Assembly: GCF_003334815.1 (NCBI RefSeq)
Contig: NZ_QOWO01000008.1
Origin: Escherichia coli
GTDB taxonomy: Bacteria; Pseudomonadota; Gammaproteobacteria; Enterobacterales; Enterobacteriaceae
Strand: one strand, 5' to 3'
DNA length: 64,000 bases
The translations under genes and the position numbers were made by a program. The notes beneath the pieces were generated by a model. The model was not told the origin of the DNA. It searched no databases and was given only the letters and a program-made list of their open reading frames with translations. Below, piece by piece: positions 5,353 to 6,388 of this stretch. Positions within the stretch are counted from its first letter, which is position 1; every line of letters begins with the position of its first letter.

Positions 5353-5601
5353 ATGGGATTCACCCTGTGGGGTAAACTTGAGTTCAATAAGCGCGATGGC
5401 TTTTTGGATTGCCCGCATGGTGACCGGGTCTGCGGCGGCGGGATGGTTAGTAAAGTCGATATTCTTCAGCTGACTGGACATTTTTTCACGAACTTCAACG
5501 GGCGCGATTACATCGAGAACATCCAGAATTTGTTTGATAACCAACTGGCAAGCAACCACATCAGAAACCAATTCCTGATCGGCATTCAGCGGCTGGGACA
5601 T
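5350..5601 (-). CDS. yecJ: DUF2766 family protein YecJ
   Basis: 83-aa [17 protein letters not shown]..., matches YecJ; synteny. Confidence 0.85.
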
Positions 5602-5715
5602 CGTAAACTCCTGATAGCATTTTGAAAGCCGTTATAGTAGCGACTTCACATCTTCAGCGATAGTCACATCCACCGTCATCAGGACACAAAAAAACCTGCC
5701 GGAGCAGGTTTTTTG

Positions 5716-5802
5716 TTATCGGAACATATTGCCTGGCGGTACGTCTTTGAACGTCTTGCAATAGTTATTGAACATACTTTTCAGGATTTTGCGCAGTTTC
5801 AT
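5716..5802 (-). CDS. azuC: Small membrane-associated protein AzuC (28 aa)
   Basis: Manual minus-strand translation gives MKLRKILKSMFNNYCKTFKDVPPGNMFR*, which I recognise as AzuC; too short for the ORF track. Confidence 0.8.
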   Translation of the reverse strand: MKLRKILKSMFNNYCKTFKDVPPGNMFR

Positions 5803-5883
5803 CGCGGCACTCCGACCATTTGTTATACAGGTGTTATTGTCTTTGCGCTTATAATATGACAACCATCACAAAAATCAATCTTT

Positions 5884-5901
5884 ATGTGATACAAATCACA
5901 T
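5884..5901. promoter_or_regulatory. Candidate CRP site upstream of azuC
   Basis: aTGTGAtacaaaTCACAt is a perfect match to the TGTGA-N6-TCACA core, about 90 bp upstream of the azuC start codon on the minus strand. Confidence 0.5.
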
Positions 5902-6064
5902 AAATACCCCTTTAATGTTATAAAAATGATAATCAAAAAACAGCCCCCCTATTTCTGACACCTACAGATGGCAAGAAATAGCGCCTGCCAGGCGTCTTTT
6001 CCGGCCATTGTCGCAGCACTGTAACGCGTAAAATAGTGCTTTCTCTTACTCTTCTGGCTGGACC

Positions 6065-6388
6065 ATGAGACTTCTGATTCTGACTCTTTCATTAATAACG
6101 CTGGCGGGGTGTACGGTTACTCGCCAAGCCCATGTGAGCGAAGTTGACGCGGCAACAGGTATTGTACGGTTAGTTTATGACCAGGCTTTTTTGCAGCATG
6201 CCCATACCGATCGTTATGTCAGTCGCGGGATCGCCGATCGCGCATGCCAGCAGGAAGGCTATACCCACGCGGTCCCCTTTGGTCAGCCAGTAGGCAACTG
6301 TAGCCTTTTTGCGGGTTCCTTATGTTTGAATACGGAATTCACTTTGTCATATCAGTGCCATCATTCCGCCTTCCCTGTCTTTCTCTAA
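6065..6388 (+). CDS. yecR: Lipoprotein YecR
   Basis: 107-aa ORF with lipobox LITLAGC; synteny. Confidence 0.85.
   Translation: MRLLILTLSLITLAGCTVTRQAHVSEVDAATGIVRLVYDQAFLQHAHTDRYVSRGIADRACQQEGYTHAVPFGQPVGNCSLFAGSLCLNTEFTLSYQCHHSAFPVFL

Follow-up and report, generated by a model that had tools for sequence, protein, structure and literature searches.

Paired CRP boxes at the promoter for AzuCR, a dual-function RNA, in Escherichia coli: a layout that fits repression

Introduction

The closest described counterpart of the locus treated here is azuC/AzuCR of Escherichia coli K-12 (b4663/b4434). AzuCR, also designated IsrB or IS092, is a dual-function RNA of approximately 164 nt (Raina et al., 2022, PMC8915982). 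It encodes the small protein AzuC, which binds GlpD and raises GlpD activity, and it base-pairs with the cadA and galE mRNAs through a region overlapping the ORF, such that its coding and base-pairing regions overlap; AzuC translation is itself repressed by FnrS (PMC8915982). In vitro, isrB is transcribed preferentially by sigma-70 RNA polymerase (PMC3141248). The azuCR promoter contains predicted CRP sites, given in the plural, and CRP represses transcription, the RNA being abundant only in exponential glucose cultures and low in glycerol and in galactose (PMC8915982). Earlier work cited by that study found more AzuC-SPA in glucose than in glycerol, and a raised level when crp is deleted (Hemm, 2010, as cited in PMC8915982). 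Direct binding has been approached by genomic SELEX with CRP, in which clones of the yecJ-yecR intergenic fragment outnumbered all others (59 clones) and in which the SELEX-chip entry for isrB(azuC)/yecR lists exactly two boxes, TGTGATACAAATCACA and TATGACAACCATCACA (Shimada et al., 2011, PMC3105977, Table S3).

Several other systems provide useful points of comparison. The spf gene (Spot 42) is likewise an E. coli small RNA that encodes a small protein, is repressed by cAMP-CRP and acts on carbon metabolism, although its sequence and protein are unrelated to those of AzuCR. Class I and class II activated promoters, typified by lac (-61.5) and galP1 (-41.5), carry the same consensus box as AzuCR, whereas AzuCR has its boxes at -48.5 and -18.5 and is repressed. 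CRP activates from -41.5 or -61.5, and also from -71.5, -82.5 and -92.5. Finally, CRP and FNR sites are told apart by a discriminating position at which CRP prefers G and FNR prefers T. The palindrome examined here has the same dyad geometry as FNR operators, and both an FNR assignment and a ChIP-seq peak have been published for it, but it differs from FNR operators in bearing a CRP-type G:C pair at the discriminating position in every lineage examined.

In what follows, we describe this palindrome, its promoter and its conservation within a 64-kb stretch of E. coli DNA, the whole of which is referred to as the window.

Identity of the locus and its RNA

The locus is the K-12 azuC/AzuCR locus in another E. 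coli strain. Positions 5560..6110 of the window are identical to K-12 MG1655 over 551 bp (window position being the MG1655 coordinate minus 1,982,157), and the two share sequence, ORF, start site, terminator and both CRP boxes, with nothing that differs (Table 1). Of the 5,426 complete E. coli genomes, 5,420 match a 501-bp query around the palindrome, with identities of 95-100%; yecJ, azuC and yecR are the features annotated under these matches, and azuC itself is annotated in more than 5,400 E. coli genomes. In one rare genome, that of E. coli O157:H7 Vac_07.1 (NZ_CP076241.1), only the yecR side of the query (positions 339-501) finds a match, and the sequence suggests a deletion or an insertion that removed the azuC promoter and gene.

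Table 1. Features of the azuC/AzuCR locus in window coordinates; positions relative to the transcription start are counted from 5844.
Feature	Window coordinates	Strand	Relative to start	Details
azuC CDS	5716..5802	minus		28 codons plus TAA stop; translation MKLRKILKSMFNNYCKTFKDVPPGNMFR; MG1655 1987873..1987959 (annotation)
ncRNA azuR (AzuCR/IsrB/IS092, dual-function RNA)	5686..5844	minus		RefSeq MG1655 1987843..1988001; start 5844
azuCR intrinsic terminator, hairpin then U-run	5686..5716	minus		MFE and centroid folds of the 159-nt RNA
azuC ribosome binding site GGAG	5810..5813	minus		7 nt before ATG; read from sequence
-10 hexamer TATTAT	5851..5856	minus	-12..-7	promoter scan
Proximal CRP box TGTGATGGTTGTCATA	5855..5870		-26..-11, centre -18.5	9/10 core
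-35 hexamer TTGATT	5873..5878	minus	-34..-29	16-bp spacer; promoter scan
Distal CRP box TGTGATACAAATCACA (TGTGATTTGTATCACA on the azuC strand)	5885..5900		-56..-41, centre -48.5	10/10 core

In a list of ORFs of at least 20 aa, azuC is visible only as the tail of a 48-aa ORF with a TTG start (5716..5862). A preliminary description of this DNA had nevertheless recognized an intact azuC, and this reading is borne out by the 28-codon translation and by a score of 75.9 bits against the NCBIfam equivalog NF033642 (stress_AzuC; cut-off 30, E = 1.3e-21). AzuC orthologues of other genomes carry Pfam PF28150. Compared with seven other lineages, substitutions in azuC fall on codon positions 1, 2 and 3 in the proportion 9:7:32, as expected for a translated gene, and the GGAG of its ribosome binding site is invariant in all nine aligned lineages. 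On the opposite strand, a further 48-aa ORF lies antisense to azuC (window 5713..5859, plus), which is probably c2317 of CFT073. A passage in an in vitro run-off study reports transcription “antisense of azuC” at c2317 and terms the locus complex (PMC3141248).

What the same preliminary description overlooked, in treating azuC solely as a small-protein gene, is the dual-function RNA. By identity to the annotated azuR, the locus yields an RNA of about 160 nt that runs from a mapped start to an intrinsic terminator and holds azuC within it. The published length is 164 nt (PMC8915982) vs. 159 nt for the RefSeq feature. The terminator hairpin is conserved in nine lineages, and the A-run and T-run that flank it give it the look of a bidirectional terminator. 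A consensus terminator scan left this terminator uncalled, although the hairpin is present in the RNA fold; the same scan picked out a weak, non-conserved hairpin at 5982..5994. No Rfam family covers AzuCR in a scan of 5400..6300 at E <= 1. The hits obtained, to STnc370, rsmX and RNAI, are all sub-threshold and fall on the terminator hairpin only.

Promoter architecture and CRP boxes

The azuCR transcription start has been placed at MG1655 1988001, or window 5844 (PMC8915982, Fig. 1 legend). Counted from there the CDS occupies +43..+129, while the text of the same paper gives +40..+126 and hence a start at 5841, an ambiguity of 3 nt. With the start at 5844, the distal CRP box adjoins the -35 hexamer, and the proximal box, exactly 30 bp away, takes up the stretch separating the -35 and -10 hexamers and overlaps the latter by 2 bp. 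The proximal box TGTGATGGTTGTCATA is the reverse complement of the second box of Shimada et al., TATGACAACCATCACA. A scan for CRP cores from -146 to +65 returned these two as the only sites scoring at least 8/10, and only five cores of at least 9/10 occur in the whole 64 kb. Perfect TGTGA-N6-TCACA palindromes number two in the window vs. 0.06 expected, a figure derived from 100 dinucleotide-preserving shuffles, none of which reached two.

The distal palindrome is a genuine CRP box. Its perfection and its placement about 90 bp upstream of the azuC start, both claimed in the preliminary description, hold: the centre, 5892.5, is 90.5 nt from the A of the ATG (5802) and the nearer edge 83 nt, both on its upstream side. 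The location given there was right to within one base, the palindrome ending at 5900 and not at 5901. A CRP site upstream of azuC had thus been correctly noticed, but the second box, at -18.5 inside the core promoter, had been missed. Moreover, while the link between azuC and CRP stood, as did catabolite control of the gene, the activation that the description implied did not, for the published direction is repression, with AzuC raised by deletion of crp. The same description had named a non-activating distance from the start as grounds for giving up the CRP link; the distance is indeed a non-activating one (-48.5 or -51.5), and the link stands nonetheless.

The geometry is informative in this regard. 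Neither box occupies a class I or class II activating position with either start site. Taking 5841 instead of 5844 shifts the box centres to -51.5 and -21.5, and leaves the conclusion on activation unchanged. Both boxes sit away from -41.5, -61.5 and -71.5; the layout fits repression. We are confident, short of certainty, that the region is a sigma-70 AzuCR promoter with paired cAMP-CRP operators, centred at -48.5 and -18.5, that repress it when glucose is absent.

Conservation across lineages

AzuC, a membrane protein of only 28 aa, is too short for a homology search, and YecR and YecJ were therefore used as anchors. A contig search with YecR found only two Escherichia loci, and word-index homologues of YecR included no named genus beyond Escherichia; the YecJ anchor reached genera beyond Escherichia. 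Six Escherichia lineages were thereby compared, namely the window, E. albertii, strain E69, E. marmotae, Escherichia sp. E3659 and one more, and both azuC and the perfect palindrome are retained in all five lineages other than the window. Within the distal box of these six, the 12 bases of the half-sites TGTGAT/ATCACA are all invariant and none of the four central bases is. Among the remaining upstream columns the invariant share is about 59%, and the probability of obtaining 12 of 12 by chance is roughly 0.002. The same pattern of fixed half-sites around a variable centre recurs among E. coli strains, in which the 60-bp core carries its polymorphisms at the centre of the palindrome and between the -10 hexamer and the transcription start. 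Both promoter hexamers (-35 and -10) are invariant in nine of nine lineages. As for the proximal box, its left half differs in two of the Escherichia lineages, reading TGCGA and TATGA; because the box and the core promoter overlap, conservation of the box cannot be separated from promoter function.

Just upstream of the palindrome, a block at 5903..5935 (-59..-91) is nearly invariant in the six Escherichia lineages and is not so in other genera. It contains TACCCCT at 5905..5911 (plus), a heptamer of the NarL/NarP type, and it coincides with NarP and PhoP motifs published in 2025 (PMC12266141).

Beyond Escherichia, azuC is found upstream of yecJ in Enterobacter hormaechei (L010, 1311..1394), Kluyvera (L011, 1330..1419) and Kosakonia (L012, 1296..1379), where it encodes proteins of 27-29 aa that end in PPGAMF. 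Both CRP boxes are present in these three genera at 8-9/10 (9/10 for the proximal box), exactly 30 bp apart and with identical hexamers, and an MFS transporter gene takes the place of yecR as divergent neighbour. The sampled loci of Salmonella, Citrobacter portucalensis and Cedecea have yecJ, and have neither azuC nor such boxes. A short contig that carries yecR (L007, 281..1265) lacks yecJ and azuC as well as any CRP palindrome. The boxes thus follow azuC where its divergent neighbour is not yecR and are absent from a yecR contig that lacks azuC, which argues that they belong to azuC and not to yecR. On L007 a ferritin gene is directly followed by yecR, whose product is 61% identical to YecR.

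Alternative readings of the palindrome

That the palindrome is a functionless chance occurrence is a reading to which we attach practically no weight. The motif is short, and nothing else speaks for coincidence; the expectation of 0.06 copies per window, the invariance of the half-sites around a varying spacer and the selection of this DNA by CRP in vitro (PMC3105977) already refute it. A CRP activator site of azuC, of class I or class II, might seem the natural reading of a perfect consensus core upstream of the gene, CRP sites being mostly activating. We nonetheless consider it highly improbable: the centre is at -48.5 (or -51.5) and not at -41.5 or -61.5, a second CRP box lies inside the azuCR core promoter, and the published behaviour is the opposite of activation, with AzuC increased by glucose and by loss of crp in the earlier work as cited, and AzuCR RNA low in glycerol and galactose (PMC8915982). 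Control of the divergent gene yecR in place of azuC is somewhat less remote, though still unlikely. The palindrome is located in the divergent azuC-yecR intergenic region, CRP in such regions can control both promoters (Shimada et al., PMC3105977), and an extended -10-like element, TGTTATAAA (plus, 5916..5924), faces yecR in such a way that the box would lie near -39 of a hypothetical start. Against this stand the 172 bp that separate the palindrome centre from the yecR ATG, the literature identification of yecR as an FlhDC target, the presence of both boxes beside azuC where the divergent gene encodes an MFS transporter, and the lack of a palindrome on the contig that has yecR without azuC.

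Of greater substance is the proposal that the palindrome is mainly or additionally an FNR operator, serving the anaerobic shut-off of azuCR and competing with CRP, PhoP and NarP. Ekdahl et al. (2025, PMC12266141) place an FNR motif at MG1655 1988039-1988058, a PhoP motif at 1988046-1988063 and a NarP motif at 1988060-1988076; the first of these spans the palindrome (1988042-1988057, window 5885..5900), and mutation of the motif or deletion of fnr relieves repression of azuCR (PMC12266141). In the same study the changes of in vivo occupancy are found mainly upstream of the annotated CRP sites, which speaks against paired CRP operators. An FNR ChIP-seq peak at 1,986,025 in old coordinates had been assigned to yecR (Myers et al., 2013); once corrected by the roughly 1,980-bp shift that follows from PMC3105977, it falls at about window 5848, at the azuCR promoter. 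The sequence GTGAT-N4-ATCAC also shares 8 of 10 positions with the FNR consensus, TTGAT-N4-ATCAA. However, both mismatches fall on the discriminating position, where G (C on the other arm) is present in nine of nine lineages, and the top clone of CRP SELEX is the azuC fragment (PMC3105977). Mutation of the FNR motif destroys the CRP box as well, and the published mutant consequently cannot separate FNR from CRP; the reported FNR assay, moreover, was carried out in glucose medium in stationary phase (PMC12266141). Dual use of the palindrome by CRP and FNR is possible. As an account of what the palindrome mainly or additionally does, the FNR proposal deserves to be kept in view, and we consider it more doubtful than probable.

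A proposed mechanism of repression

Returning to paired cAMP-CRP operators that repress AzuCR, the arrangement of the boxes lends itself to a simple scheme. CRP bound to the proximal box, which is centred at -18.5 within the promoter spacer, should keep RNA polymerase off by physical exclusion, and this box is probably the element that blocks the enzyme. The distal consensus box, in its non-activating position, would most likely serve as a high-affinity anchor that helps to fill the weaker proximal box; alternatively, or in addition, it may block upstream contacts of the polymerase. Cooperation between the boxes is plausible, as their 30-bp separation puts both on roughly the same helix face. 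Occlusion of the polymerase and cooperation between the boxes are thus what we infer, whereas positions, spacing and conservation are observed here, and CRP binding in vitro, the effects of glucose and of crp deletion and the mapped start come from the literature.

A broader scheme, which we put forward only tentatively, is that the palindrome is an operator shared by CRP (carbon) and FNR (oxygen) and overlapping the PhoP motif, and that the in-phase pair at -48.5 and -18.5, maintained across genera, constitutes a dedicated architecture for multi-signal repression at a single small-RNA promoter. If such sharing is real, the published phenotype of the “FNR-site” mutant would be partly or wholly a CRP phenotype.

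Significance

The azuC gene, its transcript, both CRP boxes, in vitro binding of CRP and the direction of regulation have all been published already, and beyond confirmation of the annotation the finding is of little importance. Its modest value lies in two points: the direction of control is corrected, the site repressing instead of activating, and DNA assigned to FNR in 2025 (PMC12266141) is identified as a consensus CRP box. The phylogenetic footprint, with its fixed half-sites, free spacer and 30-bp spacing in four genera, makes a textbook-quality illustration and is no discovery.

Other observations in the window

The second perfect TGTGA-N6-TCACA of the window, TGTGATAAAAGTCACA at 49700..49715, is intergenic and precedes drpB (yedR), whose likely start codon is roughly 60-75 bp away. 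Collinearity of the window with MG1655 and with strain M217 does not extend from azuC to this palindrome (about 6,100 to 49,300, out to 49.7 kb): the fixed offset lands in dcm and not upstream of drpB, which implies at least one indel or rearrangement between about 6,100 and 49,300. The box TGTGATAAAAGTCACA is itself listed under a CRP SELEX-chip peak (yedJ< yedR >rseX) (PMC3105977, Table S3).
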